NCBI GenBank assembly: GCA_013334575.1
Contig: JAAXXG010000002.1
Location: 69,377-133,376, forward strand
Direction of reading: 5' to 3'
Length of the DNA: 64,000 nucleotides
Source: Candidatus Moraniibacteriota bacterium
GTDB lineage: Bacteria; Patescibacteriota; Minisyncoccia; Moranbacterales; UBA1568
Shown here: in pieces, positions 6,663 to 53,061 of the stretch
Layout of the letters: each line of letters starts with the position of its first letter
How positions within the stretch are numbered: position 1 is the first letter of the stretch
Notes under the pieces: generated by a model
What the model was told of the DNA's origin: nothing
The model's database searches: none
The model's input: only the letters and a program-made list of their open reading frames with translations
Made by a program: the position numbers and the translations under genes

Positions 6663-6857
6663 AAATTCTGATATCGCAAATACTGCCCAAGAAATAACAG
6701 GACAATCTTAACGAACAAGATAAATATTTTAGCATTATTTATAATTTTAGTCAATTACTTGCACATTCATAGAAAAATCAGGGCTTGTACAAGCCCTGAT
6801 TTTTCAGAAAGCGCATTTCGGAAAAATTGCCGCTGTACACCAACCGACAACAATCAT

Positions 6858-17113: not shown

Positions 17114-17283
17114 GTCCGAAATAAAGCGTTATCGTTACCATTGTAACACAAATCCTTTCCAATGAACCGGAATGGACCAAGATCTCCGAGTCCGACCGAG
17201 AATCGTGTTTTTTCGATTTCACGAAAAAAACATAGCTCAATAAAGCCATGATTTCAGCCATTATTTCATTTCGACCCTATCCC

Positions 17284-17340
17284 ATTCTCCGCGATATTTC
17301 CGTCGAGGAACCGGGCGGTCGTATTCCTGATGTTCCCACT
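17284..17340 (-). pseudogene. duplicated fragment of the 3' end of nucleotidyltransferase gene 17873..18373
   Basis: About 90% identical to 17884..17940, which encodes the C-terminus EHQEYDRRFLDGYIANL, and carries a 1-nt indel. Lies downstream of the intervening 126-aa ORF. Confidence 0.5.
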
Positions 17341-20057: not shown

Positions 20058-20092
20058 ACACCGAAAACCCGCTTGTAAAGCGGGTTTCGCGA
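20058..20092 (-). terminator. intrinsic terminator downstream of 20169..20795
   Basis: Hairpin aaacccgcttgtaaagcgggttt, followed on the minus strand by TTTTCGG. The same stem recurs at 21352. Confidence 0.5.
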
Positions 20093-20168
20093 TTTCATCG
20101 AAAAAATGAGGCTTATATAAGCGACTAAGTAATTAGTTTTCGGATTTCAAATAATAAGGAATACCGAA

Positions 20169-37050: not shown

Positions 37051-37063
37051 AATATCGAATTGG

Positions 37064-37100: not shown

Positions 37101-37632
37101 GATTTATCGGATTCTCCTCATCCGTATCCCATTCCCGAGGATTGATACGGATATATTCCTGGATCAACCGTAGAGACTCCTCGTTCCGGATAATATGATC
37201 ATGGAATCGCGATTGCCATGAGAATCCGGATTCGGCATGCGACGCCCGGATTCTTTTCGTACAAACAGATTTGAACGACCCGACAATCGTCGCCAAAGTC
37301 GGTCGTTTTCGTGGTTCACTGTTTTCCGTAGAGACGGGGCATGCCCCGTCTCTACACGGAAGGATCTCGATGATTCCGTGAACATGATTCGGCATTACAA
37401 CAAATTCATCCGTTCGGATATCTCGAAAATGGTCCGGGATACTACCCCAGCAATCCCGGACGATTTCCCCGATTCCGGATAATGTCATCTCCCCGTTTTC
37501 GATATCGCCGAACCAGAGACACCGATCCGCGGCACAGATGGTCACGAAATATGCGCCAGGTTGGGAATAATCATATCCGGGTAAGCGTGATGATCGAATC
37601 CTGTATTTGCCTTTGTAGTTATCCGCTACCAT
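37093..37632 (-). CDS. REP-associated tyrosine transposase (RAYT, IS200/Y1 family)
   Basis: YRIRSSRLPGYDYSQPGAYFVTICAADR; HuH motif VVMPNHVHGIIEI; C-terminal WQSRFHDHIIRNEESLRLIQEYIRINPREW. Flanked by REP-like hairpins. Confidence 0.75.
   Translation of the reverse strand: MVADNYKGKYRIRSSRLPGYDYSQPGAYFVTICAADRCLWFGDIENGEMTLSGIGEIVRDCWGSIPDHFRDIRTDEFVVMPNHVHGIIEILPCRDGACPVSTENSEPRKRPTLATIVGSFKSVCTKRIRASHAESGFSWQSRFHDHIIRNEESLRLIQEYIRINPREWDTDEENPINQT
37327..37354. repeat. 28-nt palindromic element, copy 2, inside the RAYT coding sequence
   Basis: gtagagacggggcatgccccgtctctac, read on the minus strand as CRDGACPVST. Confidence 0.75.
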
Positions 37633-37667
37633 AAACGTACATACATCATATCCGATTCCCTATAACG

Positions 37668-37696
37668 GTAGAGACGCCCCGGCGGGGCGTCTCTAC
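37668..37696. repeat. palindromic element, variant copy 3, upstream of the RAYT gene
   Basis: gtagagacgcccc ggc ggggcgtctctac has the same outer arms with an inverted inner core. Confidence 0.7.
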
Positions 37697-37721
37697 GGGA
37701 AAAGAAACAAATCAGAAAACC

Positions 37722-37795
37722 CTATCCTTTCATCTTCCCCTTCAGGATCTCCGCCACGACCTCCGGGTTGGCCTTCCCCTTCGTTTCCTTTCGGC
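37722..37795 (-). pseudogene. tandem remnant of the gatB 3' end
   Basis: The rc encodes KETKGKANPEVVAEILKGKMKG*, against KETKGKANPQVVSEILRKRLEA* for the true GatB C-terminus a few nt upstream. Confidence 0.5.
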
Positions 37796-37818
37796 CTGAG
37801 GCTGATCCGCGGTCGGAT

Positions 37819-39300
37819 CTACGCCTCCAGTCTTTTCCGGAGTATCTCGGAAACCACCTGCGGATTCGCTTTTCCTTTGGTTTCCTTCATCACCTGGCCG
37901 ATGAGGAACTGAAACGCGTTCTGCTTTCCGGCATGGTAATCCTCGACAGACTTCGCGTTCGCGGCAAGAATCGCGTCGACGATGCCTTCGAGCTCCCCCG
38001 TGTCGCTCACCTGCGCGAGATTGAGCCGGTCGATGATATGCGACGGATCGTTATCCTCGCCCTTGAGCATCTCACCGAGGACCGTCTGAGCTGCGCTCGA
38101 ATTGATTTTTCCATCGGCAATTATCACGATGAATTCCGCATAGTTCTCGGGAGTGATTCCCGACTCACTGATGGTTTTTCCGGATTCGACCAGTCGTTTT
38201 CGCAATTCGGTCACGATATAGTTCGCGGCGAGCCGGATCGCCTTCTCCTCCCCGGCGACCAACTCCTTGGAATCTTTCTTTTCTCCGATCTCGCTCACGA
38301 CCGCTTCGAAATAATCCGCGGTCGGCTTCTCGGCGGTGATCACCGAGACCGCTTCAGACGACAGTCCGTATTGCTTCGCAAACCGTTCTTCCTTGGCTGC
38401 CGGCAGTTCGGGAATGGTCAGACGGAGCGCCTCGATGTCCGCTTCCGAAAATGAGAAAGGCGGGATGTCCGGCTCGGGGAAATAGCGGTAATCGTGCGCA
38501 GACTCCTTCTTGCGCTGCGAAACGGTTTTCTGTCCGTTCTCGTCCCATCCGCGCGTCTCCTGTTCGATCTTCTCGCCCGATTCGAGCGCCTTCGTCTGTC
38601 GGGCGATCTCGTATTCGATCGCCCCGGCAACCGCCTTGAACGAGTTGAGGTTCTTCACCTCGACCTTGGTACCGGACAGCCGGTCCTCACCTTCCGCATA
38701 CAGCGAGATATTCGCCTCGCAGCGCATCTGTCCCTTTTCCATGTCCGCGTCCGAAATGTCGAGATACCGGAGGATCTGCCGAAGCTTCTGGCAGAAGAGC
38801 CGCGCGTCGGCGGCGTTGTCGATATCCGGCTCGGTCACGAGTTCCATGAGCGGCACCCCCGAACGGTTCAGGTCGACCAGGGTATGTTTGGTACCGGCGG
38901 GATGATACAGCTTGCCGGTGTCCTCCTCCATGTGGATCCGGGTGATGCCGACCGTCTTGCCCTCGCGGATCGTGAGCGCCCCCTTCCCGCAGAACGGTTC
39001 GTCGTACTGCGAGATCTGGTAGCCTTTCGGAAGATCGGGATAGAAATAGTTCTTGCGGTCGAACTTCGAGTGCCTGGCGAGTTCGCAGCCGAGCGCGAGT
39101 CCGGCCCGCTGCACCGATTCGATTGCCAGCCGGTTCGGAGTCGGAAGCGCTCCGGGCTGTGCGGTACAGACCGGGCAGATGTGTACGTTCGGTTCGGCCT
39201 CCTGTCCGAGACCGTTCCTGCACGAGCAGAACATCTTGGACTCGGTCCGAAGCTCGACATGGACCTCCATACCGATGACGGGAGTGTATTTCATAATCAT
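37819..39300 (-). CDS. gatB: Asp-tRNA(Asn)/Glu-tRNA(Gln) amidotransferase subunit B
   Basis: MIMKYTPVIGMEVHVEL N-terminus and C-terminal GatB/YqeY tail. The upstream ORF extension is Arg-rich read-through. Confidence 0.9.
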   Translation of the reverse strand: MIMKYTPVIGMEVHVELRTESKMFCSCRNGLGQEAEPNVHICPVCTAQPGALPTPNRLAIESVQRAGLALGCELARHSKFDRKNYFYPDLPKGYQISQYDEPFCGKGALTIREGKTVGITRIHMEEDTGKLYHPAGTKHTLVDLNRSGVPLMELVTEPDIDNAADARLFCQKLRQILRYLDISDADMEKGQMRCEANISLYAEGEDRLSGTKVEVKNLNSFKAVAGAIEYEIARQTKALESGEKIEQETRGWDENGQKTVSQRKKESAHDYRYFPEPDIPPFSFSEADIEALRLTIPELPAAKEERFAKQYGLSSEAVSVITAEKPTADYFEAVVSEIGEKKDSKELVAGEEKAIRLAANYIVTELRKRLVESGKTISESGITPENYAEFIVIIADGKINSSAAQTVLGEMLKGEDNDPSHIIDRLNLAQVSDTGELEGIVDAILAANAKSVEDYHAGKQNAFQFLIGQVMKETKGKANPQVVSEILRKRLEA

Positions 39301-39337
39301 ATGACAGATAGCACTGAACGGATGGCGGGGAACGGAG

Positions 39338-39763
39338 TCACTGCCTCCCCGTACTCCCGAAATGCCCCTCTCCGCGTATCGTAGCATCGAGCTCCGAAAC
39401 CTCGCAAACCTCCGGAAGCGCGATCGGCACGACGAGCATCTGGGCGATCCGCTCTCCCGACGCGACCTCATACGGCTCATCCGAGGTGTTGAGCATGATA
39501 ACCTTCCATTCCCCGCGATAGCCGGAATCGATGACGCCGCCGAGATTCGTGATCCCGTGCTTCGCCGCGAGCCCGGACCGGTCCATGATCAGTCCGACGT
39601 ACCCCTCCGGGATCGCGATGGCGACCCCCGTCGGTACGATGCGCCGCTCTCCGGGACCGAGGGCGGATCCCTCCGTCGCGTACAGGTCGAGACCGGCATC
39701 GCCCGGGTGAGCGCGCATCGGTAACACCGCATCCGGATGGAGTCGTTTTATTTCCAGTTTCAT
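39338..39763 (-). CDS. dut: dUTP diphosphatase
   Basis: MKLEIKRLHPDAVLP ... AGLDLYA ... GVIDSGYRGE motifs. 141 aa. 4-nt overlap with tmk. Confidence 0.85.
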   Translation of the reverse strand: MKLEIKRLHPDAVLPMRAHPGDAGLDLYATEGSALGPGERRIVPTGVAIAIPEGYVGLIMDRSGLAAKHGITNLGGVIDSGYRGEWKVIMLNTSDEPYEVASGERIAQMLVVPIALPEVCEVSELDATIRGEGHFGSTGRQ

Positions 39764-40464
39764 AAGAGTCCTTCCACGACTTCGTATACCTTCTCGGCGA
39801 TGTCCTCGCGCGCGAGGAGTTCCCCCTTCCGGACACATTCGACCTGGTGCCAGTCGTTCCGCCTCCGAACGAGCCGAAGCGCGCTCTCGCGGCTTTTCGC
39901 GAGATACCGCTCGTCCGTCTCCAGGGTATCCTTCCGGCTTCCGCCCCGAAGATACGGTTTTTTTGATACTGCCTCCTTCCCGGCCAGGAGGCGTCGCGAT
40001 ACCTCGGTCGGAACATGCAGATGGATGATCGCATCCGGACGCGGCAATCCGAATACGCCGAATTCCATCCGGTCGAGCCATTCGAGAAATTCGCGCCGTT
40101 TCCGCGGCTCGGATATCTTTCCTCCCTGATGGATCTGATTCGAACTCACGTACCGGTCAAGAATGACGACGCATCCGTCTCGGAGCCATCGTTCGATCGT
40201 CGCCTTGGATTCGAACCGGTCGGCCGCATAAAGGACGGAGGTGATCTTCGGGTCAAGACCCGCGAAATCCCCATGTTCACCGGCGAGGCATTCGCCGATC
40301 AATGCTCCGAACAGGTTCGATTCGTATCGCGGAAAATCGAGCATCCGCACGCGATACCCGTCCTTCCGCAGACGGGACAACAGAAGCGCCGCCTGTGTCG
40401 CCTTTCCGGATCCATCGGAGCCGTCGATCACGATGAGTCGCCCCTTGCCGTGCCGCTTCGCCAT
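39760..40464 (-). CDS. tmk: thymidylate kinase
   Basis: P-loop IVIDGSDGSGKATQ, DRY-like DRYVSSN, and a lid region. Confidence 0.85.
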   Translation of the reverse strand: MAKRHGKGRLIVIDGSDGSGKATQAALLLSRLRKDGYRVRMLDFPRYESNLFGALIGECLAGEHGDFAGLDPKITSVLYAADRFESKATIERWLRDGCVVILDRYVSSNQIHQGGKISEPRKRREFLEWLDRMEFGVFGLPRPDAIIHLHVPTEVSRRLLAGKEAVSKKPYLRGGSRKDTLETDERYLAKSRESALRLVRRRNDWHQVECVRKGELLAREDIAEKVYEVVEGLL

Positions 40465-40478
40465 ATATCCGTTTTCAG

Positions 40479-41078
40479 TTATTCGCCCGACTCCGCATCG
40501 CGAAGCCGTTTCCGATCGGAAGCCTCCTTCCGCATCTCTGCGATCGCGGTATCGACCGCCGCATAGAGCTCCTCGAGCGACCCCTCGTTGCCAATCACGT
40601 ACCGGGCCTGTCCCTTGAGCGCGGGAATACCGACTTCGGTCTCGAGCGAATGGTCACGTTTGAAATCCTCGAAAGTCTTGGTATCGTCGTCGGCGTTCTG
40701 TCGGCGTTTCACGATACGCCCGTACCGCGTCTCCATCGATGCCTCGACATAGATGAGCGAGAACTCGGGAAATCCTTTCACGGCCTCGATGTCGGACTGT
40801 CGACGCACACCGTCGATGACCACGAGCGGATTCGGATCCCGCACCGCGTCCTCGGCGATGGCGTGTGAGAGCAGGTTCTCGCCGAAGGCGCTACGGAGCG
40901 CTCCCGAGACCTTCGTCAGGTTCTCCCGGGTCTGCGCGACATGGATCCGGTTCAGGACATCCCGCAGCGGATCGGAAAACATGAACGTCCTCGCGCCGTA
41001 CTGGTTGGCCAGATAGCGTGCGACCGTATCCTTCCCCGAGGCGATCTCGCCCGCGATCCCGACGATGATCTTTCCCAT
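40479..41078 (-). CDS. deoxynucleoside monophosphate kinase, phage T4 gp1-like
   Basis: P-loop IVGIAGEIASGKDTVARYL. The C-terminal VIGNEGSLEELYAAVDTAI closely parallels T4 dNMP kinase VITNDGSLEELFSKIKNTL. Confidence 0.55.
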   Translation of the reverse strand: MGKIIVGIAGEIASGKDTVARYLANQYGARTFMFSDPLRDVLNRIHVAQTRENLTKVSGALRSAFGENLLSHAIAEDAVRDPNPLVVIDGVRRQSDIEAVKGFPEFSLIYVEASMETRYGRIVKRRQNADDDTKTFEDFKRDHSLETEVGIPALKGQARYVIGNEGSLEELYAAVDTAIAEMRKEASDRKRLRDAESGE

Positions 41079-41099
41079 ATGCGTGATTATTAGCCCTTA

Positions 41100-42404
41100 T
41101 TATTCGTCCGTCGGCTTCTCCGTGATATCCTGTCCGCCACGACGCACGTCCCAATCGTCCCGGTCCCGGTCGATATGGAGCGCGACATCCGGAAACCGCT
41201 CCGAGATCTCGTCCGCCATCCGCCATGCTACGGGCCGAATGGTCGGATGCACCGTCTTGCCGCTGCGCAGTTCGACGAAGTAGACGAGGGCCGGCAGGTC
41301 GAAGGTGAAGCGGCACGGCACGCGATAGCCCATGGCGACGAGATACTGCCGCTCCTCCGGGTGCGCTCCGATCGCCGCGATGGCCGCCGTCTGCCCGGCG
41401 ATAAGTTCCTCGGCCTCCTTCCGCACCGCCTCCGGCAGCTGATCCAGGTACCACGGATGGAACCCGTGTCGCGTCGAAAGGAGCGGCATGTGATGGATAC
41501 CGGCGCGATGCCGCTGTATGTCACGGTACGAACCGTAGTCGAGCAGGAAGTCGAACGTGAAGGTGCCCGCGTCGCGTACGTACTGCGGCAGGTTCGTCTT
41601 TTGCGGACGCTTCGCGAGGATATCGCGATACGACGCGAGCGCCCCGGCCGAAACCGTCGTCGTAGCACGGAAGTCCGGCGGGAAATCCGCCGGGTCGAAA
41701 TAGGTTTCCGGCGCGAGAACGTCCTCCCGATACGCGTCCTGTTCCGGATAGCGCTTGTGCGAGAAGCTGTTCGGATAGCGCTCCGAAAGTCTCGAAAGGA
41801 CCGTCTCGGCCATCTCGCGGACCTCGGAAAGCGGATGATGCCGCAGAAGCGAGAGTTTGTCCCATGCCTGCCGCAGGTTCGTATGCCACGAAAGCTGCGT
41901 CGTGATACCGGCCGGGAGGAAACCGCGGAGGATATCGAACGTGCGCGCCTTGATCGCCTTGTCGTAGAGCTTCTCGTCCTCGTCCGCGCGACGCGGATAC
42001 TTCACCCGCAGGTGATCCTCGACCGCGGGGCCCGATGCGACATAGAACGAAAGCCACCGTTCCTGTATCGCCCGCGAAGCGTCGTTCCCGACCGGATCGA
42101 TCATCGGCTGACGGCTCATGTCGATATAGCGGGTACTCGTCTCCTGGCCGGAGTACAGCGGCCAGTCCTGGATCGCCTTGTCGCAGAGGATGCTCACTCC
42201 CTCGATGAAGATTGTCGTACTCCCGCAGTCCGCGATCGAATGGTGCCCGTAGCCCACGTAGAACCGCTCCATGAACTTCCCCGATCCGGTCTCCGCGACC
42301 TTCGCGGCGTGGATCTCGACACTCTCGGCGCTCCGGGAATAGAGCGCCTGCATCATTGCGGTATCCTCGGGTCCGTACTCGTCATAGAGGAAGATCTTGG
42401 GCAT
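41100..42404 (-). CDS. thyX: FAD-dependent thymidylate synthase ThyX, tandem-duplicated (two Thy1 domains in one chain)
   Basis: N-domain: GHHSIADCGSTTIFIEGVSILCDKAIQDWPLYSGQETSTRY, with RHR replaced by QDW. C-domain: FTFDFLLDYGSYRDIQRHRAGIHHMPLLSTR plus RFTFDLPALVYFVELRSGKTVHP. Each half also has the FxWTxNxRxL region. Confidence 0.6.
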   Translation of the reverse strand: MPKIFLYDEYGPEDTAMMQALYSRSAESVEIHAAKVAETGSGKFMERFYVGYGHHSIADCGSTTIFIEGVSILCDKAIQDWPLYSGQETSTRYIDMSRQPMIDPVGNDASRAIQERWLSFYVASGPAVEDHLRVKYPRRADEDEKLYDKAIKARTFDILRGFLPAGITTQLSWHTNLRQAWDKLSLLRHHPLSEVREMAETVLSRLSERYPNSFSHKRYPEQDAYREDVLAPETYFDPADFPPDFRATTTVSAGALASYRDILAKRPQKTNLPQYVRDAGTFTFDFLLDYGSYRDIQRHRAGIHHMPLLSTRHGFHPWYLDQLPEAVRKEAEELIAGQTAAIAAIGAHPEERQYLVAMGYRVPCRFTFDLPALVYFVELRSGKTVHPTIRPVAWRMADEISERFPDVALHIDRDRDDWDVRRGGQDITEKPTDE

Positions 42405-42557
42405 AGAGGTTCCCGTTAAGATGACGACCCTAGCACCCTATTTTCGCACGAATCACGACGGGTCGCAAACGTCGCCGCGCAACCGAAAAACGGACGAAAG
42501 TCCGAGAAAAGGAAAAAGCGCCCGCGGTTTCGCGAACGCCCCCTTCCGTTTCCGGGC

Positions 42558-42800
42558 TCAGGCCGTATACGGCGTGATTGCAAGGAATGAGAACTGACCG
42601 ATATTCACGCCTGCCTCAGTATTGAGGTGCGCGACTCGATCTCCTCTTTTTCCGGCGGAACTGATATAGGAAACCACAAAAGGACCTTCCGAATGAGCAT
42701 CCTTTTTATGCCCGTAATCAGGATGGTCGGGATTCCACGTCACCAGATCGCCGACTTCGAACATGACCTTCCTCTCACTCAATTTCTCCGTTTGAGACAT
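42558..42800 (-). CDS. hypothetical small protein
   Basis: 80-aa ORF. Weak support only. Confidence 0.3.
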   Translation of the reverse strand: MSQTEKLSERKVMFEVGDLVTWNPDHPDYGHKKDAHSEGPFVVSYISSAGKRGDRVAHLNTEAGVNIGQFSFLAITPYTA

Positions 42801-43185
42801 AATCCCTCCGCTTTTTTAACTTGCCGATATTCCGTTTTCCGATGCGGGAAATTATCGCACGGACATCGGAACCTGTCAATCGCGATCCCTTCCCGTCGTC
42901 CGTCATCCCTTTGTGTATGAGTGCACGTTCCGTCATTGGAGGAGGACCTGATCTGCATTCACGGATTGACTCGGAATGTGTTCCGTGCTATCGTACCGCT
43001 TTGTGGTCTTCTTTCACAATCGCACGGTGTCCGGCCTTCCTCCCGCCGATATGGTGGGCGGGCGGCCGGACATCGTACCGGCATGCGCTTCGGGCTTCCC
43101 GTCGGAAGGGTCGGCATCATAGTGATGCCTGTATCCTGCCGATTTCCGGCATACCGATGGAACGACCGAATAAACAAATGACGTC

Positions 43186-43767
43186 ATGAGAGCCGTAACT
43201 GTAACAAACGAGCGACAGGAACCGAAAATCACGGTCGAGAAAAAGTTCATCATCAAAGAGGTTGACCGCTGTGGAATCCGGTTGTCGCGAGGTAAAAAAG
43301 AGCCCGTTTTCGTCCTGGTCGGAGAGCGTGATGCTTCCATCGTGAGACGGTCGACCGACTCGAAAACATCCTTCTTCGTCGACCGCATCGGACTCTCCCG
43401 CCGAATGACAGATTTCGGAGACTGGCGATACCGGCTTGTCGATGAACGATTCGGCCAGCGATATCCGAACGACTCCGTCCTGATCCGACTTATCATCGAT
43501 TCAGGAACCGATGATAGCTGCAAGATCCATTACGATCCCGCGGTGGAGATGATCAGCGTGCAGACCTACGCCAAAAAGGAATCTGAGCAAATCTTCACCC
43601 GCTCGGAGGCGCTCGCCATTCTCAAACCGGGACAGTCCCTCTTCGCCGAACGGCATGGGAGCGGCATCGACAAACCGTACGGGTGCATCAGAAACCATAA
43701 CGGACGGATCGAGGTCACCTGGAGCGAATCCAAGGACGATCTGCCTGCCCTCTTCTGCACCTACTGA
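43186..43767 (+). CDS. hypothetical protein
   Basis: 193-aa ORF with no motifs recognised. Confidence 0.4.
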   Translation: MRAVTVTNERQEPKITVEKKFIIKEVDRCGIRLSRGKKEPVFVLVGERDASIVRRSTDSKTSFFVDRIGLSRRMTDFGDWRYRLVDERFGQRYPNDSVLIRLIIDSGTDDSCKIHYDPAVEMISVQTYAKKESEQIFTRSEALAILKPGQSLFAERHGSGIDKPYGCIRNHNGRIEVTWSESKDDLPALFCTY

Positions 43768-43914
43768 TCCGGCAACCGATTATCCGAAACCCTTCGTCAG
43801 CGCACGGAGGGTTTCAATTTTCAATACCTTCCAACCCGTTACGAACCAGAGCGTCTTTTTTTTCCGCTTTGACGTCTCGGGATAAAACCTGCAACACCGC
43901 CCGAATCGTCACGA

Positions 43915-44015
43915 GACGACAGCGGGAAGGTTTTTTCGTTTCAAGCCCCTCCTTTCCGATTTCATCAAAAAAATGAGGCTCATATAAGCCTCATTATTTG
44001 ATCGTTTCGGATTTC
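43915..44015. repeat. intergenic repeat element A (about 100 nt, terminator-containing)
   Basis: Near-identical to B at 44677..44774. Contains a hairpin aatgaggctcatataagcctcatt with an A-run before and a T-rich run after, acting as a bidirectional terminator. Confidence 0.7.
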
Positions 44016-44132
44016 TGACAAAATGAAAGCGTTTGCCTCAGGCAACACCCGGAATTTTGACAGCACCGAAAGAACCCTATAACATGCCAAAAAAAGCCCT
44101 TTCCCATCAACCGAACGATTCCCGGAGGCAAC

Positions 44133-44624
44133 ATGCGAACGCAACGAAGCTATTATCTCGCCGCATTTCTTGGCGCGCTATATGCGCCGATTCTCGGGAC
44201 GGTCTACCCGGACGCCTTGTCGATCGAAGTACCGCTTAGTGTATCCGTAACAGTTGCGGCCGTCTTTATACTGGTCTTCTCCACGCTCCTTCGAAGAAAC
44301 GGTTTCCGCTCCGCGCTTGGGGTAGCGGGTTACCAACTGGCATACCTGACAACTCTACTGTCGCTCGCGGTACAATATCTTAAACATGGAACCGGAGCAG
44401 TCGCTCCCGCCTTCTTCGGAACATTCGCCCATTCTTCCGTTACTGTTCTTTCCTCGATTCAAGACGAGAAATTCCTACTGGTATTTATCTGGACGGCTGT
44501 CGCCATGAACAATGCCATGGTGTACCTTCATCCGCCAATCCACGTATTGTGGACCGTCGCCCTCATGTTCTACGTCCTCTACGGACTGTCCGAGGAGCCC
44601 GAGACGATCGCTCCGGAATCGTAG
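44133..44624 (+). CDS. small integral membrane protein
   Basis: 163 aa with 5 hydrophobic helices. Flanked by repeats A and B. Confidence 0.45.
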   Translation: MRTQRSYYLAAFLGALYAPILGTVYPDALSIEVPLSVSVTVAAVFILVFSTLLRRNGFRSALGVAGYQLAYLTTLLSLAVQYLKHGTGAVAPAFFGTFAHSSVTVLSSIQDEKFLLVFIWTAVAMNNAMVYLHPPIHVLWTVALMFYVLYGLSEEPETIAPES

Positions 44625-44676
44625 GGCCTGTGCCGAATCAAGAATGAAGCCTCCCCGCTCGAATCATCGCAAGATG

Positions 44677-44774
44677 ACGACGGGGAGGTTTTTTCGTTTC
44701 AAACCCCTCCTTTCCGATTTCATCAAAAAAATGAGGCTCATATAAGCCTCATTATTTGATCGTTTCGGATTTCG
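44677..44774. repeat. intergenic repeat element B
   Basis: Same element as A, with an additional upstream stem cctccccg ... cggggagg followed by TTTTTT. Confidence 0.7.
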
Positions 44775-44864
44775 GGCAAAATCTGAACCTATGAACGTCC
44801 CTCGTGATCCGGTAAGAAAGAAGCCCGTGTTCTTGGAACACGGGCCTCGAAAAGAACATACCTG

Positions 44865-46029
44865 TCAGAGGTTCGTCATGATGGCCTCCCCCATCGCCTC
44901 GGTACCGAGAATCATATCGCGGTTATCAACCAGCCTCGCCAAATCCGCGGTACGATATCCCGCCAAAAGCGTCTTCTCCACCGCCTTCTCGATAGCCCCC
45001 GCACCAACCTTCGCTCCGATATGACGAAGCATCATCGCAGCCGTCAGGATCCGACCGATAGGATTCACCTTATCCTTCCCCTTAAGGTCGCAGGCCGTTC
45101 CCGCTCCGCTCTCGAACATTGCGGAACCGGTTTCCGGATTCACGGCGGAACTGCACATCATACCAAGACTTCCCAGCATGCCAGCAGCGCCGTCGGAGAG
45201 AATGTCGCCGTGTTCGTTTCCGCACATGATGACTCCCGCAAGCTTCATCGGCATGCCGAGCAGTGCGTTCGCCGCATCGACATACAGATGGGAAAGCGGG
45301 ACATCGGGGAATTCTGCCTTTCCGATCTCGGTCGCCATTTTCCGCCACAGTACGTAGCGAGCCATCACGTTCGTCTTATCGATCGAGATGACCGGAAGAC
45401 CGCGCTCCCGGGCATACCAAAACACGGCACGCATGTACTTCAGGAGCGTCTCGCGACGATAATAGGCAAGTTCAACGACCGCCTCCTCATCCCCGACGAC
45501 TTCCTTCTTCAACTTGATCATCAACTGGTCCCGCACTCCGCAACCGATATGATCATACAGATCCGAAGTGCCAAAGTAACTGTCCTCGAGCAGCATCCGG
45601 ACGAAAACCTGTACTATACCATCCGATGGGATATTTTCCGGCCGCACGAGACACAGATGATCCAGCGACTTGTGATAGACGACCGGCCGGAAGTTGAGCA
45701 ACAAGCCCATTTCCTTGCGCAGGGCAAGTAATGCCCGTGCTTCCGGCATCATCTCCGGATGTTTCACGCCGAGCGTCTTATCAATCTCAGTATCCCCCAC
45801 TCCTCCGAAGAAGAGTGTCCCGATCTCCACTGCTCGTTTCAACGACTCGGCAGGAAGCGTATCGCCGAATTCCCTGAAGGCGTTCCACCCCATCGGCGTT
45901 TTTTCGAAGACGATCTCGATACCGTCCTTTTTCGCGGCTTCGATGGCGACCGCACATGCGGCCGCCATCATTTCCGGAGCCGCCCCGTCGCCCGTCACGA
46001 GCGCGATTCGAACTTCCCTTCCTTCTTTC
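44865..46029 (-). CDS. isocitrate/3-isopropylmalate dehydrogenase family (LeuB-like)
   Basis: IALVTGDGAAPEMM, a GSLGMMCSSAV region and a dehydrogenase C-terminus. Start assigned to TTG at 46027-46029, preceded by AAAGGAGGG, to avoid a 115-nt overlap with the upstream gene. Confidence 0.7.
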
Positions 46030-46051
46030 AAGAGTCCCTCCTTTTGTTGAT

Positions 46052-48019
46052 TTACAGCTTTCCTTCCGCCTGCAATCCGGCGGCTGTCTCGAACATGAAC
46101 GGGATGACTCCGCCTTTCCTGAGCAGCTCCTTCTGCAGCCAGGTAAGCTTGAACGGAATCTCCCACATGTCCTCACCCGCCGTACCGACGCGGACCACAC
46201 CCTCGTCCGGAAGCACTTCGACCGTGTCCGGTCGCCTCTCACGCAGGTCATTCATGACCTCGTCCGGGAGTTCGACACACAGCAGGCCGTTCGCAAACAT
46301 GCTGGCACTGAAAATACGTGCGAAGCTCGACGCGATAACGCATGTGATTCCAGCCTCGAAAAGGGACCAAGGAGCATGTTCACGCGACGAACCGCAACCG
46401 AAGTTCTTACCAGCGACCAGTACGCTCGACCGGAACAGCCGTTCCTGTTCCTCCCCGGTCAGGTCGACCCCTTCAAGACAGTGCTGTCCAAGCCCGGTTT
46501 TCACGGACGTCGTCAGGTACTTCGCCGGGATGATGACATCCGTATCGACATTGTCCCCTCTCTTCCCCTGGAGATACAAGACTTTCCCCGAGAACTCCGG
46601 CTTGACCGTGATGCGCGTGGCCCGATGCAGTACGCCGTAGTCCGGCCGACTCAACTCGGTCACCCCATCCCAGTCTGTGAGATTGAGCGGATGACCTTCT
46701 TCGGACATGCTCGCGATATCGTCGAGCACACGTCCACACAGCTCCGGACTCGGCACCGCGACGCTTCCCGTCATGGCCGACAACGCCGCCACCGCCGGAG
46801 AACAGAGATGCACCATACCGCCCTTACCCATCCTTCCCTTGAAGTTCCGGTTACTGGTCGAAATGCACACCTCTCCGGGAGCGAGGACGCCTCCGCTCAT
46901 ACCCAGGCACGGTCCGCACGTCGCTGACATGACGACGCATCCCGCGGCCATGAATACATCGATGAGACCCTCATACAAAGCTCGCCGATAGATATGCTGC
47001 GTCGCCGGAATAACGATACACCGCGTACCGTCAGCGATCCTGCCGCCGAAATCACGCATGATGCCGGCCGCGATGCGCAGGTCTTCCAGGCGTCCGTTCG
47101 TGCAGGATCCGATGAACACCTGCTGAAACGGCATACCCTCCAGATCGGACGCTGGCACGACATCGGCCGGGGTATACTCCACCGTGATGAGCGGCTGCCT
47201 GTCAGTCACGTCGATCGTGATGACCTGATTATACTCGGCATTCGGGTCGCTGTTCCACGCCAGCAATTCCTCTTCCTCATATCCCGCCGACTCGATGAGC
47301 GGCCGCAGATATTCGATGGTCTTGTCGTCCACCGCCACCATACCGGATGTCGCCCCGGCCTCGACCACCATGTTCGTCATGGTCATCCTCGCCTCCATGC
47401 TGAGCGCCTCCACGACCGGCCCGCCGAATTCGATGACCGCATTCGTCGCGCCGGCAACTCCCATCACCTCGATCAGCATCAGGATGAGGTCCTTGGCGAA
47501 CACGTTCGCCGGGAGTGTCCCGACATACTCGACGCGGATCACCCGCTGAGGCTGACAGAACCAGAGCTCGGTCGAAACGGCCGCCATCATCTCCGAAGTC
47601 CCGACTCCCGCGGTAAGCGCACCGAACGCGCCACCGGTACAGGTATGACTGTCACCCATGACGGCAATCTGCCCCGGGAACAGCCACCCGCTCTCGGGAA
47701 AAAGCGCGTGACAAACGCCCCCCTGCCCCGCATCGCGGAATTCGATGCCGTGTTCCTTACACCATTTTCGCAGCGTATCGGCCTGAAACGCCGTCGCCTC
47801 GTCGTTGGACGGGCAGACGTGGTCGATCGTCGCTTTTATCCTGTTCGGATCGAATACCACGTCACAGCCGCGGGCCTTCATGTCCACGATACCAGGAGGC
47901 GTCGTGATTTCATGACAGAAGACCTGATCCACTTTCAGCACCATGGTCCCGTCCGGAAGCGTTTTCAGCAAATGCGCATCGACGATTTTCTGATACGCCG
48001 TTTTTCCTCGTTTCTGCAT
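46052..48019 (-). CDS. aconitase-family hydro-lyase, fused large+small subunit (LeuC/LeuD-like)
   Basis: 655 aa. Fe-S cluster cysteines in GSCTNGR and TCGPCLG contexts, and a LeuD-like swivel domain at the C-terminus. Confidence 0.8.
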   Translation of the reverse strand: MQKRGKTAYQKIVDAHLLKTLPDGTMVLKVDQVFCHEITTPPGIVDMKARGCDVVFDPNRIKATIDHVCPSNDEATAFQADTLRKWCKEHGIEFRDAGQGGVCHALFPESGWLFPGQIAVMGDSHTCTGGAFGALTAGVGTSEMMAAVSTELWFCQPQRVIRVEYVGTLPANVFAKDLILMLIEVMGVAGATNAVIEFGGPVVEALSMEARMTMTNMVVEAGATSGMVAVDDKTIEYLRPLIESAGYEEEELLAWNSDPNAEYNQVITIDVTDRQPLITVEYTPADVVPASDLEGMPFQQVFIGSCTNGRLEDLRIAAGIMRDFGGRIADGTRCIVIPATQHIYRRALYEGLIDVFMAAGCVVMSATCGPCLGMSGGVLAPGEVCISTSNRNFKGRMGKGGMVHLCSPAVAALSAMTGSVAVPSPELCGRVLDDIASMSEEGHPLNLTDWDGVTELSRPDYGVLHRATRITVKPEFSGKVLYLQGKRGDNVDTDVIIPAKYLTTSVKTGLGQHCLEGVDLTGEEQERLFRSSVLVAGKNFGCGSSREHAPWSLFEAGITCVIASSFARIFSASMFANGLLCVELPDEVMNDLRERRPDTVEVLPDEGVVRVGTAGEDMWEIPFKLTWLQKELLRKGGVIPFMFETAAGLQAEGKL

Positions 48020-48182
48020 GTTCGTCCCCTGTTTTCGTTGAGTGAATATACTATTTGTTAAACAAAACGGATCCTACAGTGCAGGATCTCGTGCCATTCC
48101 GATATACCAGGAAACGACTCGTATAGCAAGCGGATAATGACATTTACGACTTCAAACCGTCTTTTGGCCACAATCTTCCCAG

Positions 48183-48238
48183 TTTCACCAAAAAAATGAG
48201 GCTCATATAAGCCTCGTTATTTGATCGTTTCCGATTTC
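48183..48238. repeat. intergenic repeat element C (core of the A/B family)
   Basis: tttcaccaaaaaaatgaggctcatataagcctcgttatttgatcgtttccgatttc. Confidence 0.65.
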
Positions 48239-48284
48239 GGGCAGAACCGGGCAGATTCTGGAAACGTTACATAATCTGACGACC

Positions 48285-48401
48285 GCATTATTTTGTAACG
48301 TTTTCTGAGCGATGGATGGAAACGACTTGGTAGATGATTGTGTCGATCGCGGTCACGGTCAGCACCGGCATATCGTCTTCCGTCGCACGGATGAGGTTCA
48401 T
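48285..48401 (-). pseudogene. detached 5' fragment of the GNAT acetyltransferase gene (copy X)
   Basis: rc encodes MNLIRATEDDMPVLTVTAID ...; the first ~50 nt match the start of 50113..50574. Confidence 0.5.
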
Positions 48402-48556
48402 AGCGACCCAGCTCTTCAGGATCGTATCAGGCCCCTTTTCCGATTCCAGATAGCGTTTCGTTCCGTCAATTATTTTTTTCCACGCGAGCGGAATGTTTTT
48501 TTATCTAAAAAAAGCAGGTCCCACATTCGTGAGACCTGCTAAATACTCTCCTTTCA

Positions 48557-50008
48557 TCAGAAATTGCCGCCTCCGCCTGCGCCTGCGGTTTCACCTCCGC
48601 CAAAGGAGATGCCGCTGTCCGGGGTTGAACTCGAATAAATCGGACTCGGACTATATGGCGAAGAAGGACTCGCGACATATGGGTGGCCACCCTCATCGGA
48701 CCGGCTTGACCTGTGCGATACGCCGGACGAAGCATGACTTCCTGACGGCCGTGCGGAGAACGACCGCTGCGGCACGTATATCGACTTCGGAGCAATCTCG
48801 TCGACTGCGGATTTCCTGATCGACCGTGCTTCGTCGTTCAGCAGTTCAAGCAGCAGCGCCGCCTGTAAGAAGTCGAACTGCTTCGGACTCGGCTCTCTCA
48901 ACAGATCCCGACGGAGACTTTCATACGCCTGCCGCTGATCTTCACAGCGATCGCGAAGACGCTGTGAGACACCTGGCTTTCGGACCGCGTCTTCGGCCCG
49001 ATTGATGGCGACACCCGCAGCATCAAGCTTCGCATCGATACCGGATACCGTCTGACGAGCTCCGCGATATACCCTCATCAGCCCGGACAGTTGTGCGATA
49101 AGAGAAACGGCTGCATATCTCGCACCGCTCCAGCCGGTCTCATCAGAACGCTCACCGATACCGGACAACAATCCGTTGAATTTCGATGCTATGTCCGCAG
49201 CCTTCTGACGGGCTTCCATAATGGCAGCATCGGTGACGTACTGACCGGCATTGTCGAGTTGCCGGTTGAAAGAGTCCATCTCCCGATTGAAATCAGCCTT
49301 GAGTTGCTCCACCGCCGCACGACGGCTCCTGGCCCTGCGAGACCGAGCGAACAGATACCGGATTCCGACCCCGATTCCGACTATAGCGAGTACGACGAGA
49401 AACGCCAACAACACGTCTTCGGCTTTCGCATCTGATTGAGCTTTGCCGGTCGCTTCAACCCGCTCTATGCTCTGCTGATGTTCCGTGGAGATCTTCGGCC
49501 CGAGGACCGTCATGATGTCCCGCGACATCTGTTCAAGCGCCGGACCGATATCACCAGCTCGCAGACTACTCGCCAGCAACGGCTTCGCACGGTTGAAGAT
49601 TCTCCCGCATTCGGCATCCGTCAACTCCGTTTCAACCCCCTTTCCGGTCGTAATCCTGACTTTCCGAGGATTGGTGCAGACCGTTATCAGGACACCGTAG
49701 TCGTCACCTTTCTGTCCGATGCCGGTCTCGTGAAAGACGTCGACTGAATACTGCTCGATCGTCGCCCTTCCCGCAAAGTCCTTCGTCGTAAGCACGACGA
49801 TCTGGACCTTCGAATCCTTCTCATACCCCGAGAGAAGCTGATTCAAGTCCGACTTTGACGATTCGGAAATGATACCGGCGAGGTCCGTAATGCGCTCCGT
49901 GAGTTTCGGAAGTTCTTCACCGTTCCCTTCAGCCGCGAATGCCGTTCGGCACCCGTGAGAGAGAAGGAGCAGCAAGAACACCGCCAGAACTTTCATGATT
50001 TTCCTCAT
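48557..50008 (-). CDS. TPM-domain (TLP18.3/Psb32/YgcG-like) membrane protein with Gly-rich C-terminus
   Basis: Signal peptide, TPM-like KVQIVVLTTKDF ... DDYGVLITV ... RKVRITTGKGVE, a TM helix, a long charged linker and a GGGETAGAGGGGNF tail. Confidence 0.6.
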   Translation of the reverse strand: MRKIMKVLAVFLLLLLSHGCRTAFAAEGNGEELPKLTERITDLAGIISESSKSDLNQLLSGYEKDSKVQIVVLTTKDFAGRATIEQYSVDVFHETGIGQKGDDYGVLITVCTNPRKVRITTGKGVETELTDAECGRIFNRAKPLLASSLRAGDIGPALEQMSRDIMTVLGPKISTEHQQSIERVEATGKAQSDAKAEDVLLAFLVVLAIVGIGVGIRYLFARSRRARSRRAAVEQLKADFNREMDSFNRQLDNAGQYVTDAAIMEARQKAADIASKFNGLLSGIGERSDETGWSGARYAAVSLIAQLSGLMRVYRGARQTVSGIDAKLDAAGVAINRAEDAVRKPGVSQRLRDRCEDQRQAYESLRRDLLREPSPKQFDFLQAALLLELLNDEARSIRKSAVDEIAPKSIYVPQRSFSARPSGSHASSGVSHRSSRSDEGGHPYVASPSSPYSPSPIYSSSTPDSGISFGGGETAGAGGGGNF

Positions 50009-50112
50009 GCTAGACTCCGTGTTTTCGTTGTAGGATGCTATTCACTTATAAAAAATACTTCGGTATACGATAATACAGAATATGAATTCTGTCAAACCAA
50101 TCTCTCACTTTC

Positions 50113-50574
50113 TTATATAGAATCGTCTCTTTCTTTCGTGTCACACTCCCTCGTCATGATGATCCGAGGCTGTCCGTCGCCGTAGAGATTATCCTCCCGA
50201 CCGGAAGCGACGAAGCCGAGCGACTCATAGAGCTTCACGGCGTGATTGTCCGGGTGAACGTCGAGGCTCACGCGGTCGAATTCCCGCAATTCCTCGAGCA
50301 GCATTCCCATAGCCTTTCGGGCCAATCCCCTCCGTTGGAACTCGGGCGCGATAATAAGTCCGCTCACGTAGGCATAATCGGTATCCTTCACCCGGTAGGA
50401 GATATCCCCGACGATCACTCCGTCCTCCTCGATCAGATAGACAGTCTCGTCGCGGATCCACTGCCGCATCTCCTCGTCGGTGAAACCCCAGTTGTAGACA
50501 ATCAGATCCCTCGCGGTCTCCTCGATCGCGGTCAGTACCGGCATATCGTCTTCCGTCGCACGGATGAGTTTCAT
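50113..50574 (-). CDS. GNAT family N-acetyltransferase
   Basis: MKLIRATEDDMPVL start, acetyl-CoA motif RRGLARKAMGMLLEEL. 153 aa. Confidence 0.75.
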   Translation of the reverse strand: MKLIRATEDDMPVLTAIEETARDLIVYNWGFTDEEMRQWIRDETVYLIEEDGVIVGDISYRVKDTDYAYVSGLIIAPEFQRRGLARKAMGMLLEELREFDRVSLDVHPDNHAVKLYESLGFVASGREDNLYGDGQPRIIMTRECDTKERDDSI

Positions 50575-50745
50575 AAGATCACATATCATTCATGATCGTA
50601 TTCCTCTCCTGTTTTGATAGACTATCAACAAAAATATCGCCTTTCCAAGCCATAAAATGACACTTGATTTATCTAAGATTTTATGATATCATAAAACGTT
50701 GTGCCTTCATAATCTATAAGCATACTCTCGAGGAGGAGAGTCATC

Positions 50746-51192
50746 ATGCCAAAACTTCTCAAATACGGGCTTTCAACCCTGGGCGTCTGTGGCATTTTTG
50801 CGATTATCATCGTAGCGATGCTTAGCCGCGGGACTTTCGGTCATCTCGTGCCACTATCGGACGAGGATCTGAAAACGATTACCGAGGTGACTACGCAGGA
50901 TTCGAATTCATCCATCGCGTTCCGTTCCCATTCGGAAATACTACGGTGCGGCCCGCTTTCGCTTCGAAAAACAAGCCGCATCTCGGCATTCGTTTTTCGT
51001 GGAGAACCTATCTCGGCGCGCAAGACCGTCATGTACGGTTCACTCCGGTTCGGCAACCAAGCAGACGAAATGATGCCCCCGCTCCGAATACCAGACGGTG
51101 CGAACTCAATGTACTGGTATGAATGCGGCAACACCACCGTATCCCTTGGATCCATACCGGATCCGCATATCGGAATCGGATTCAATTTCTGA
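50746..51192 (+). CDS. hypothetical membrane-anchored protein
   Basis: GAGGAGG RBS, N-terminal TM helix, 148 aa, followed by a terminator. Confidence 0.4.
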   Translation: MPKLLKYGLSTLGVCGIFAIIIVAMLSRGTFGHLVPLSDEDLKTITEVTTQDSNSSIAFRSHSEILRCGPLSLRKTSRISAFVFRGEPISARKTVMYGSLRFGNQADEMMPPLRIPDGANSMYWYECGNTTVSLGSIPDPHIGIGFNF

Positions 51193-51196
51193 AAAA

Positions 51197-51240
51197 AAAC
51201 GGCCGACACGTCATAACGAGTGTCAGCCGTTTTTTCATTC
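51197..51240. terminator. bidirectional intrinsic terminator
   Basis: A-run, then the cggccgacac ... gtgtcagccg stem with one mismatch, then a T-run. Confidence 0.5.
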
Positions 51241-51292
51241 CCTTGTAACACCGAACAACCGCGTAACGCTTCAACATCCGAAACGACCCTAT

Positions 51293-51390
51293 GCGATCAT
51301 GACCATTGCATTGAATTTGCCGTCCTTCTCGGTCTCCTCGATCGCAGTCAGCACCGGCATATCGTCTTCCGTCGCGCGGATCAAGTTCAT
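51293..51390 (-). pseudogene. detached 5' fragment of the GNAT acetyltransferase gene (copy Z)
   Basis: rc encodes MNLIRATEDDMPVLTAIEETEKDG... then a stop after 32 codons. About 90% identical over ~60 nt to the start of 50113..50574. Confidence 0.5.
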
Positions 51391-51394
51391 AGGA

Positions 51395-51850
51395 CTATAA
51401 GGAATCGCTCGTCTTGTGGAACGGCTTCCCGGTTTCGAGGAATGAAAAGATTCCCGCCTTGAGGGAATCGGGAAGAATGTGATGCTCGCGAAGCGAATCC
51501 GCAGATACGACCGCGAACTCGAGATGATCCTCCTGCGATCCGAGAGATATTCCCGTCGGAACCCGGACCTCGAAGACGAAATTCACCTCGTGCTGACTCG
51601 ACGTCTCCGATATCGGAAATGCGTTTTCGCAGACACCGACGAGATCGCCGATCAGATAGTCTCCCTCTCCGAGTTCCTCGACGAGTTCGCGGGCGAGCGC
51701 CGATCGTGCGGATTCCCCGTCTTCCACGTGTCCCCCTGGCAGAAAATTCCAATCCTTGCCCTTCAATCGACAAAGGATCACGTCTTCGCCTTGCCGAAGC
51801 AGCGCCCGCGAAATGAAATGTATATGCGATTCAGGAGCTTCGTAGGTCAT
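51395..51850 (-). CDS. NUDIX hydrolase
   Basis: Canonical Nudix box GGHVEDGESARSALARELVEELGE. Confidence 0.75.
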   Translation of the reverse strand: MTYEAPESHIHFISRALLRQGEDVILCRLKGKDWNFLPGGHVEDGESARSALARELVEELGEGDYLIGDLVGVCENAFPISETSSQHEVNFVFEVRVPTGISLGSQEDHLEFAVVSADSLREHHILPDSLKAGIFSFLETGKPFHKTSDSL

Positions 51851-51859
51851 ATATAATCA

Positions 51860-52411: not shown

Positions 52412-52440
52412 GAAAAAAAGAGGGTCTACTCGCCTCTCTT

Positions 52441-53043: not shown

Positions 53044-53061
53044 AGAGGTTTCCGTTTAACT

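Follow-up and report, generated by a model that had tools for sequence, protein, structure and literature searches.

Ordinary terminators are not sequence families. [quoted passage not shown] The dif and pdif sites span 28 bp, in which a XerC arm, a 6-bp spacer, and a XerD arm with a conserved TTATGTTAAAT-like half follow one another. The REP sequences (repetitive, palindromic, and extragenic) and bacterial interspersed mosaic elements (BIME) of Enterobacteria and Pseudomonas are substrates for rearrangement, and they often lie at 3' ends and there stabilise transcripts or bring them to an end (PMC3184786). The subject of this work is a repeat family in 64,000 nt of DNA (the window) from contig JAAXXG010000002.1 of a Candidatus Moraniibacteriota bacterium (assembly GCA_013334575.1), a member of the Patescibacteria or Candidate Phyla Radiation (CPR). 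Genomes of the CPR are small and known almost only as metagenome-assembled genomes (MAGs), and both their non-coding repeats and the turnover of genes among their strains are little understood.

Two of these repeats, A and B, stand on either side of an open reading frame of 163 codons (ORF163). The explanation that we favour, and that we hold to be moderately probable when it is taken as a whole, is that A and B represent one composite intergenic terminator module in duplicate, with a hairpin called T1 on the left and a member of a dispersed family called the core on the right, and that a strain-level indel has arisen between core A and a further copy, core C. Within this explanation we infer termination at the hairpins, a RecA-type origin of the indel, and the spread of the indel allele by allelic replacement.

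Repeats A and B, the T1 hairpin, and the core family

A repeat search of the window returned 43897-44024 (A) and 44655-44782 (B) as direct repeats of 128 nt that are 91% identical and have a start-to-start spacing of 758; a gapped alignment, which accommodates a 4-nt indel, extends the homology from ~43880/44642 to ~44028/44786, about 145 nt. The near-identical direct repeats reported in the initial annotation of this DNA are real, and they are longer than was then stated. A stretch of 70 nt is identical (43946-44015 and 44704-44773), 11 of the 128 positions (9%) are mismatched, and the flanks are unlike. The hairpin that the same annotation had placed between A- and T-runs in both repeats is also present: the 24-nt palindrome AATGAGGCTCATATAAGCCTCATT occurs exactly at 43972-43995 and 44730-44753, with A7 and ATTATTT on its sides, and with one mismatch at 48195, in core C, and 100 dinucleotide shuffles gave no match to it.

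The 9% divergence of A from B shows them to be separate loci rather than one bubble collapsed in assembly. Two Logan contigs, assembled independently from run SRR11449211, terminate at window positions 43975 and 44744, which by coordinate arithmetic correspond to the last k=31 words that still hold a site that tells A from B. This is where the k=31 graph of a true 70-nt exact repeat is expected to break, which argues that the repeat is real; that contigs break exactly at A and B is also a warning for assemblers. A third contig from Logan matches window 8937-18337 at 100% identity. ORF163 was not found in Logan, so the inner joins from A through ORF163 to B rest on the NCBI MAG together with the arithmetic of the contig ends. 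Since the homology between A and B runs past the shared core into the locus-specific T1, A and B are products of a segmental duplication or conversion and not of two independent insertions.

The left-hand part of the module, T1, has the sequence CCTCCCCG.TCG(AA)TCATC-loop-GATGACGACGGGGAGG followed by T6, and a covariance model (R2) finds it in the window only in A and B. Copy B (44650..44694, plus strand; 87.1 bits), which starts 26 nt past the ORF163 stop, has an interrupted stem of 16 bp followed by T6 (-27.4 kcal/mol, z = -4.8) and would be the intact intrinsic terminator of ORF163, while copy A (43888..43936, plus strand; 69.5 bits; -14.9 kcal/mol, z = -1.3) is a degenerate hairpin with T6 that carries a 4-nt insertion and several mismatches. 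At the related loci L013 and L015, T1 follows the stop of an ORF163 homologue directly (~10 nt) and is 83-89% identical at the nucleotide level, although the proteins are only 30-35% identical; at L011, copies lie 3' of the genes g184 and orf61. In the T1 helix 92.7% of cells are paired, with 2 compensatory pairs, counts that support the helix. Taken together, these features suggest that T1 is a long-stem, U-tract intrinsic terminator of plus-strand transcripts that is native to the ORF163 gene family. A stem-loop with a U-tract, as expected of an intrinsic terminator, is present in T1 copy B and, on the minus strand, in the core, and is degraded in T1 copy A; T1 copy B, T1 in L013 and L015, and cores D, F, C, B, and E all stand 3' of a stop codon and are oriented to suit the gene that ends there. 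A 19-nt match to T1 in IMG/VR is due to chance (it has no hairpin and no covariance-model hit), and there are no true matches among viral contigs and plasmids.

A conserved minus-strand micro-ORF of 11-12 codons, MKRK[N/S]LP.V..*, runs over T1 (43888-43960 and 44650-44718, and also in L011 and L013). In A, B, and both L011 copies AAAGGAGG precedes it and TTG serves as its start, and in L013 it opens with ATG. The hairpin and the A-run may by themselves give rise to it.

The right-hand part of the module, the core, is an AT-rich extended imperfect palindrome of ~57 nt, TCCGATTTCATCAAAAAAATGAGGCTCATATAAGCCTCATTATTTGATCGTTTCGGA, which sits in a conserved unit of ~75-87 nt. The window, whose genes lie mostly on the minus strand and whose G+C averages about 58-60% with low-GC patches at 6-7, 17-18, 20-21, 37-38, 44-45, and 48-53 kb, holds six copies (F, E, D, A, B, and C), all in the same orientation, and more copies in this orientation occur in L011 and L013; the census covered the 64-kb window and about 100 kb of related loci. 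The copies at 20085, 43952, 44710, and 48175 came from the repeat search, BLAST added the one at 17210, and a covariance model (R1) added 6749-6834. Core A (43944..44030, plus strand; 91.4 bits with R1), with its 57-nt palindrome and conserved flanks, forms the left breakpoint of the indel and is 97% identical over 72 nt to core B (44702..44788, plus strand; 96.7 bits), which folds on the minus strand into a 10-bp stem with U7 (-18.5 kcal/mol, compared with -15.5 kcal/mol on the plus strand). Core C (48167..48253, plus strand; 85.1 bits), the right breakpoint, is 90% identical to B; its match with A extends over 72 nt at 88-90% identity, with a longest exact match of 27 nt. Core D (20077..20163, plus strand; 68.8 bits) has a degraded palindrome top, and the orthologous site in a sister MAG has an equal score. 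Core E (17201..17287, plus strand; 66.3 bits as a copy in the training alignment, 72% identity over 47 nt by BLAST) is diverged but keeps its hairpin with other bases, and it is also kept in the sister MAG. Core F (6749..6834, plus strand), which is likewise diverged, lies outside the training set and scores 36.1 bits (E = 3e-4), with a hairpin of -24.3 kcal/mol.

Divergence within the family is graded, from 97% down to ~60% identity. E and F preserve the palindrome with changed bases, and D has lost part of it. At -2.3 kcal/mol the alignment-wide consensus fold is weak, with double changes in 3 of the 6 pairs, and the blocks ATTTCA[CT]C.AAAAA, AAGCC, and TTTCGGATTTC are conserved at the level of sequence.

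Five of the six cores lie past the stop of a minus-strand gene or pseudogene, at distances of 6 (D), 24 (F), ~47 (C), 77 (B), and 106 nt (E); the genes that precede them are clpB (F), ORF126, the gene for a membrane protein of 208 aa at 20169-20795 on the minus strand (D), an icd-like gene (B), and a 5' fragment of a GNAT gene. Core A follows no minus-strand gene. From its structure and position, the core would be a terminator for the minus strand and a weaker one for the plus strand. The initial annotation had asked whether the element is tied to genes for small membrane proteins, and such a tie does not appear: the neighbours of the cores are unrelated (clpB, an ABC ATPase, a hydrolase, the icd-like gene, an aconitase-like gene, and the GNAT fragment), and only core D abuts a membrane-protein gene. 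The contrary view, that of a common terminator reused by unrelated genes, largely holds within the census, yet the A/B/C family does delimit variable DNA.

No Rfam family was found for the repeats at the gathering or a permissive threshold, and scans of genome and metagenome contig collections, which do not include the source genome, with the core pattern returned only unrelated low-GC terminators. Two other ideas were rejected: that of a DNA-uptake sequence, as the window shows no enrichment of any short motif, and that of the core as a sigma-70 promoter, given poor hexamers, a spacing of 15 nt judged by eye, and gene contexts that do not agree. The minus-strand 'promoters' that are predicted in A and B drive no gene.

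A second hairpin, H2 (48262..48304), lies beside core C and overlaps the 3' end of the GNAT 5'-fragment pseudogene (about 48334-48444, minus strand). The same junction of core and H2 is found in copy 1 of L011 and in L016, a contig of the sister MAG. Another repeated terminator hairpin, AAAACCCGC.TGTAAAGCGGGTTT, occurs at 20056-20082 and 21347-21379, 1.3 kb apart (91% identity over 33 nt), and one of its copies is fused to core D.

The locus in a sister strain and in relatives

The sister MAG, HGA38 (GCA_013336155.1; contigs L016 and L019), encodes a ThyX protein that is 100% identical to that of the window and is colinear with window 10346-27102, 31156-44015, and 48175-56640. On the reverse complement of L016 (L016rc), 5208-12909 corresponds to window 36313-44015 and 12846-21305 to window 48175-56640, and the 64-nt overlap between these segments fits both core A and core C. 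The sister locus has a single T1 and core, with an A-type left flank (gene193 and the degenerate T1 of copy A) and a C-type right flank (H2, the GNAT fragment, and a TPM gene). The left flank matches the window through T1, with one difference further 3', in the linker, and the switch from the A-flank to the C-flank falls inside the core. Missing from the sister is one repeat period, 48175 - 43952 = 4,223 bp, which holds ORF163, module B, and the icd-like and aconitase-like genes. Two direct repeats in one strain and one hybrid repeat in the other, with one period gone, is the arrangement expected of a repeat-mediated indel.

The grouping of A, B, and C in one repeat family by the initial annotation is borne out, and the family is additionally found to bound variable DNA, in that L016, with its single module, lacks all of the DNA from core A to core C. 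The variable unit that is seen is not the 163-aa ORF alone but the 4.2 kb that include B and the two metabolic genes. Target-site duplications at the outer edges, a check suggested in the initial annotation, were looked for and none were found, and the 'empty' allele of the sister keeps one core. The locus thereby offers, at base-pair resolution, an accessory block of 4.2 kb, two metabolic genes included, that differs between near-identical strains at repeats.

Outside scattered patches of divergence, the window and the sister show 0-4 mismatches in each 500 nt of backbone, and this near identity indicates that the two MAGs are strains of one species. Beside the junction there are 12-21 mismatches per 500 nt, and 1.2 kb on its left and 0.5 kb on its right are 3-4% diverged. 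Since these flanks are diverged unlike the backbone, the alleles are old, and they probably passed between strains by allelic replacement instead of arising in this pair.

It is unlikely, although still worth weighing, that the repeats are reused terminators and nothing else, with A and B a local duplication and the difference in the sister an unrelated deletion that ends nearby. The architecture of a hairpin with a U-run, the position at the 3' ends of genes, and the independent origin of similar hairpins as terminators in unrelated low-GC genomes would agree with this, as would the stability of cores D and E, which are unchanged in the sister. However, both ends of the 4,223-bp indel lie inside the 72-nt core and one hybrid copy is kept; in addition, three genomes have different content between cores at the same locus, and L011 copy 1, like L016, joins an A-type left flank to a C-type right flank.

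Part of this evidence comes from relatives of the locus. The ORF163 homologue adjoins thyX in L013/L014, as it does in the window (the thyX genes are 79% identical in amino acids and 76% in nucleotides), lies 3' of a 192-aa gene in L015, and lies 3' of a gene193 homologue in L011 (GCA_013334245.1, from a sister sample). The -35 sequence TTGAC and a GGAG ribosome-binding site are invariant in all four ORF163 loci. In L011, which belongs to another species, the layout is g184-T1-core-H2, and further on core-promoter-ORF163 homologue-orf61-T1-core. Between gene193 and the GNAT gene three genomes hold different sets of genes, and each junction bears a core. A further relative, L017 (HGA31, with a ThyX of 79% identity), has only a marginal match to the core and no T1. 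The presence of ORF163 homologues at related loci, with the same -35 sequence and T1, argues that ORF163 is ancestral at the locus and that T1 is its native terminator. The initial annotation had raised the question of a cargo association; with homologues at the same thyX-proximal locus in three other related genomes, ORF163 does not look like a recent import and, as judged from these comparisons, is not demonstrably mobile. The two T1-plus-core copies of one genome are 91% (A and B) and 84% (copies 1 and 3 of L011) identical, and positional counterparts between genomes are 74-84% identical; that copies within a genome are the closer ones points to concerted evolution or repeated duplication. 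Beside the GNAT gene that borders the variable locus, L011 carries at 4709-8055 a Hachiman-type defence pair (HamA and a DEAD/ResIII helicase).

In the explanation that we favour, T1 on the plus strand and the core on the minus strand would form a back-to-back terminator, or insulator, between convergent genes. Module B would end the ORF163 transcript and back up termination of the icd-like gene; module A, which lies 3' of gene193, where a terminator is already present, and ahead of the ORF163 promoter, would be a copy whose T1 half is decaying. As direct repeats of 70 nt or more, the cores would double as substrates for recombination that creates or removes the genes between them. The indel could arise by RecA-type homologous recombination between cores, either as a deletion or in reverse as the integration of a circle that carries a core, and the resulting allele would then have spread by allelic replacement. 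Loss in the sister is favoured by the ancestral presence of ORF163 in distant relatives and by the contiguous T1-core-H2 that L016 and L011 copy 1 share. Insertion of such a circle is the exact reverse reaction of deletion and may instead have been the event.

Several observations weigh against this explanation. T1 is 83-89% identical across genomes whose thyX genes are only 76% identical in nucleotides, which exceeds what a generic terminator needs. The conserved blocks of the core are kept even where the hairpin is degraded (D and L011 copy 1), which hints at a sequence-specific role beyond that of a terminator. Termination by T1 and by the core is predicted from sequence alone. The diagnostic sites in the sister core form a mosaic from which neither the position of the crossover nor the direction of the event can be read, and there is one informative pair of strains. 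Finally, A and B, with 70 nt of exact match, should recombine more readily than A and C, with 27 nt, yet the observed event is between A and C. To these may be added the palindrome TCCGATTTCGGATT, which lies between the -35 and -10 elements of the ORF163-homologue promoter in L013 (1672-1685) and L015 (1887-1900); it equals the outer left and right blocks of the core joined without the inner hairpin, and it is not repeated in the window. Given the excess conservation of the flanking blocks and of T1, the presence of TCCGATTTCGGATT in promoters, and an event between A and C rather than A and B, a reading of the core as a site of specific recombination or protein binding is retained at low probability.

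The fullest form of that reading, which we regard as improbable, makes the core the recombination site of a cassette system of the integron or dif kind, in which a recombinase encoded elsewhere acts on AATGAGGCT-CATATA-AGCCTCATT and units, each closed by a core (ORF163; the icd-like with the aconitase-like gene; orf180; and so on), are excised and inserted. The 9-6-9 order of arm, spacer, and arm, read off the sequence, is that of tyrosine-recombinase core sites, the three genomes show cassette-like arrays with differing cargo and a core at every junction, and the flanking blocks are conserved beyond the need of a hairpin. Set against this, the scanned ORFs of the locus and the window include no integrase or recombinase, ORF163 has its own promoter and terminator, and most cores stand singly and stably after housekeeping genes (clpB, an ABC transporter); moreover, the palindrome is lost in several members (D, L011 copy 1), there is no attC R'/R'' motif and no arm of the known XerD consensus, and homologous recombination explains the junction data equally well. 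There is a slim chance, then, that the core is the site of an undescribed CPR cassette-exchange system, whose agent would recognise the 9-6-9 palindrome or the flanking blocks and whose circles would be excised and re-inserted at other cores. Were it real, such exchange might also generate the other small ORFs of the window that are bracketed by local duplications of 60-130 nt.

Equally doubtful is the proposal of a core that is mobile but non-autonomous (of MITE, REP, or PATE-like type), with separate insertions at A to F and possible mobilisation by the IS200-like gene, or REP-associated tyrosine transposase (RAYT), at 37093-37632. The family is dispersed, with divergence graded from 97% to about 60%, each element as a whole is one long palindrome, and the RAYT-like gene is in the window; but that gene is flanked and interrupted by a different palindrome, GTAG...CTAC (GTAGAGACGGGGC), which the core lacks. 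The absence of target-site duplications also argues against independent insertion, as do the extension of the A/B homology 55 nt past the core into T1, the co-inheritance of the core with H2, the fixation of orthologous copies in the sister strain, and the absence of a core-less allele at any site.

A mis-joining artefact of metagenome assembly, to which the reliance on MAGs and short contigs and the breaks of Logan contigs at the repeats might seem to point, is very improbable as the source of the repeats or of the 'deletion' in the sister, given the 11 differences in 128 positions and the different flanks of A and B, Logan ends exactly where a k=31 graph must stop at a true 70-nt repeat, a longest exact match of just 27 nt between A and C, a sister core with variants of its own and flanks 3-4% diverged (and thus a different allele), and the same repeat-ORF-repeat layout in a related species.

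ORF163 and other features of the window

ORF163 (44133..44624, plus strand; HGB18_01930) is present as the initial annotation had it, and its 163-aa product is identical to that in the annotation of the Candidatus Moranbacteria MAG, where it and the neighbouring HGB18_01935 are encoded on a contig of 134,881 nt. In place of the five transmembrane helices first assigned to it, an AlphaFold2 model built on a thin alignment is all-helical with six helices, at low confidence (predicted local distance difference test score, pLDDT, of 61). No match was found in Pfam, NCBIfam, or PHROGs, and a word-indexed protein search returned only the protein itself. An exhaustive HMMER search of 1.84 billion representatives yielded three clusters of relatives, at 41, 35, and 30% identity, which share with ORF163 26 invariant alignment columns, including the motif F.WT.V..NN....H.P. 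ORF163 is a real, fast-evolving membrane protein of very narrow, lineage-restricted distribution. Its promoter, TTGACA-17-TAACAT (44057..44085, plus strand), matches the consensus at 10 of 12 positions, and a GGAGG ribosome-binding site lies at about 44122-44126; with these and with T1 of copy B 26 nt past its stop, ORF163 constitutes a self-contained transcription unit.

Upstream of module A lies gene193 (43186..43767, plus strand), a lineage-specific ORF of 193 aa whose exact product is encoded on Logan contig L010; it is 94% identical in amino acids in the sister MAG (L016) and 36% in L011, and it has no match in Pfam, NCBIfam, or PHROG. Its own intrinsic terminator would be the 12-bp stem with a T-rich tail at 43786..43815 (plus strand, -18.7 kcal/mol). 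On the other side, a 13-bp stem at 44820..44848 (minus strand, -23.3 kcal/mol) would be that of the icd-like gene (44865..46031, minus strand; HGB18_01935), which encodes a protein like isocitrate or isopropylmalate dehydrogenase (Pfam Iso_dh, 8e-78) with a TTG start confirmed by an exact database match. Beside it, at higher coordinates, lies a fused gene of the aconitase family (46052..48019, minus strand; LeuC/LeuD-like; Pfam Aconitase and Aconitase_C), and neither gene has a counterpart at the sister locus. Their closest database relative, L009, is 77% (icd-like) and 64% (aconitase-like) identical in amino acids; no core is found on that contig, which is too short to show the neighbours.

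The RAYT-like gene (37093-37632, minus strand), the sole transposase-like gene in the window, matches NCBIfam REP_Tyr_transpos with E = 3e-17 and 63 bits, below the 80-bit cutoff, and Pfam Y1_Tnp. Palindromes of the type GTAGAGACGGGGC...GCCCCGTCTCTAC are associated with it, at 36286-36313, 37328-37355, and 37668-37696; of these GTAG palindromes, one immediately precedes the gene, a second is in-frame within the RAYT ORF itself, and a third is in-frame within a miaA-like gene (VETGHTPSL), at a spot where the sister MAG has a different, longer segment.

Three more small orphan ORFs (126, 148, and 148 aa) lie between direct repeats of 60-110 nt that are 85-93% identical: 17291-17350/17892-17950, 50507-50578/51323-51394 (with a further copy at 48350-48444), and 53884-53993/54703-54816. 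These repeats are copies of, respectively, the 3' end of a 166-aa gene, the 5' end of the GNAT gene, and the 3' end of rplA with its terminator. All three pairs also occur in the sister MAG, and core E abuts the remnant at 17291-17350. Single-crossover (Campbell-type) integration or local duplication fits these arrangements. No homology was found among the small repeat-flanked ORFs of the window.

A second strain-variable spot lies at window 9650-10346, between the region upstream of clpB and a gene for a MacB-like permease. This spot measures 696 nt in the window, where it carries an ORF of 149 aa, and 1,615 nt in the sister (L019), where it carries a gene of 458 aa; no core is involved. Two CIRCE-like inverted repeats (TTAGCA.TCTC-N-GAGAGTGCTAA) are found at 9593-9644 and 26810-26861, upstream of clpB and of the heat-shock genes on the dnaJ/hrcA side.

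Comparison with known systems

Like integron cassettes with their attC sites and the pdif modules of Acinetobacter (XerC/D), the locus has small gene units between imperfect palindromes of ~60-140 nt, cargo that varies at one place, and an arm-spacer-arm arrangement. Unlike them, it has neither R''/R' sequences (RYYYAAC/GTTRRRY) nor consensus XerC/D arms and neither intI nor attI, and ORF163 brings a promoter and a terminator of its own. Inspection of the A and B sequences gave no R''-L''...L'-R' pair, the closest sequences, GTTTCAA and GTTTCGG, being violations of the consensus; no integrase, transposase, or recombinase is present among the ORFs scanned at the locus, and the ORF163 promoter is conserved, in contrast to a promoterless cassette. 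The 9-6-9 geometry is present in the core, but its arms are unrelated to the known Xer consensus, which may not be that of the dif site in this lineage. In addition, pdif sites alternate in orientation, whereas the cores are all direct and most lie outside any array.

With MITE-type repeats (Correia/NEMIS of Neisseria, ERIC/IRU, RUP, and BOX), the core shares an intergenic position, a length within 70-150 nt, and a long hairpin. It differs in having no terminal inverted repeats apart from the palindrome and no target-site duplication, and no single copy of it is seen to be present in one strain and absent from another. An alignment of 10 copies contains no duplicated flanks, and the TTTC beside the inner hairpin is part of the unit in all of them; at the three sites that are testable, the sister retains D, E, and one A/C hybrid, and none is empty.

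The likeness to REP/BIME and their RAYT is that of a short, imperfectly palindromic, extragenic, and dispersed element, with a RAYT homologue in the window. However, the core is AT-rich, about twice as long, present at ~1 per 10 kb, and without the GTAG/CTAC that marks the base of a REP palindrome, which is found instead in the separate palindrome GTAGAGACGGGGC...GCCCCGTCTCTAC. No core was found near 37093-37632 with R1, where cognate REPs would be expected to flank a RAYT, and GTAG palindromes are there instead.

In common with intrinsic terminators, back-to-back ones included, the module places a stem-loop and U-run just after stops, T1 for the plus strand and the core for the minus strand, and an A-run upstream with a T-run downstream would permit both directions. 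In contrast to them, the core is a sequence family (up to 97% identity) whose conservation takes in the loop and some 20 nt of flank to either side, and T1 exceeds the neighbouring coding DNA in conservation. A concrete, sequence-defined repeat family that would double as terminators is of use for pangenome and annotation work.

The closest parallel for the indel is repeat-mediated deletion, or excision and integration of the Campbell type, after which one hybrid repeat remains and exactly one period is gone, as in the sister strain, where the period is 4,223 bp. The cores are nevertheless short (72 nt at 88-90% identity, with A and C matching exactly over 27 nt at most), which is close to the least that RecA-dependent exchange requires. 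Taken together, these comparisons suggest that the repeats mark a recombination-prone spot of gene gain and loss and are probably not a dedicated mobile element; the likely mechanism, recombination between dispersed repeats, is an ordinary one that is already known, and the family described here likely belongs with the REP/MITE-like terminator repeats.

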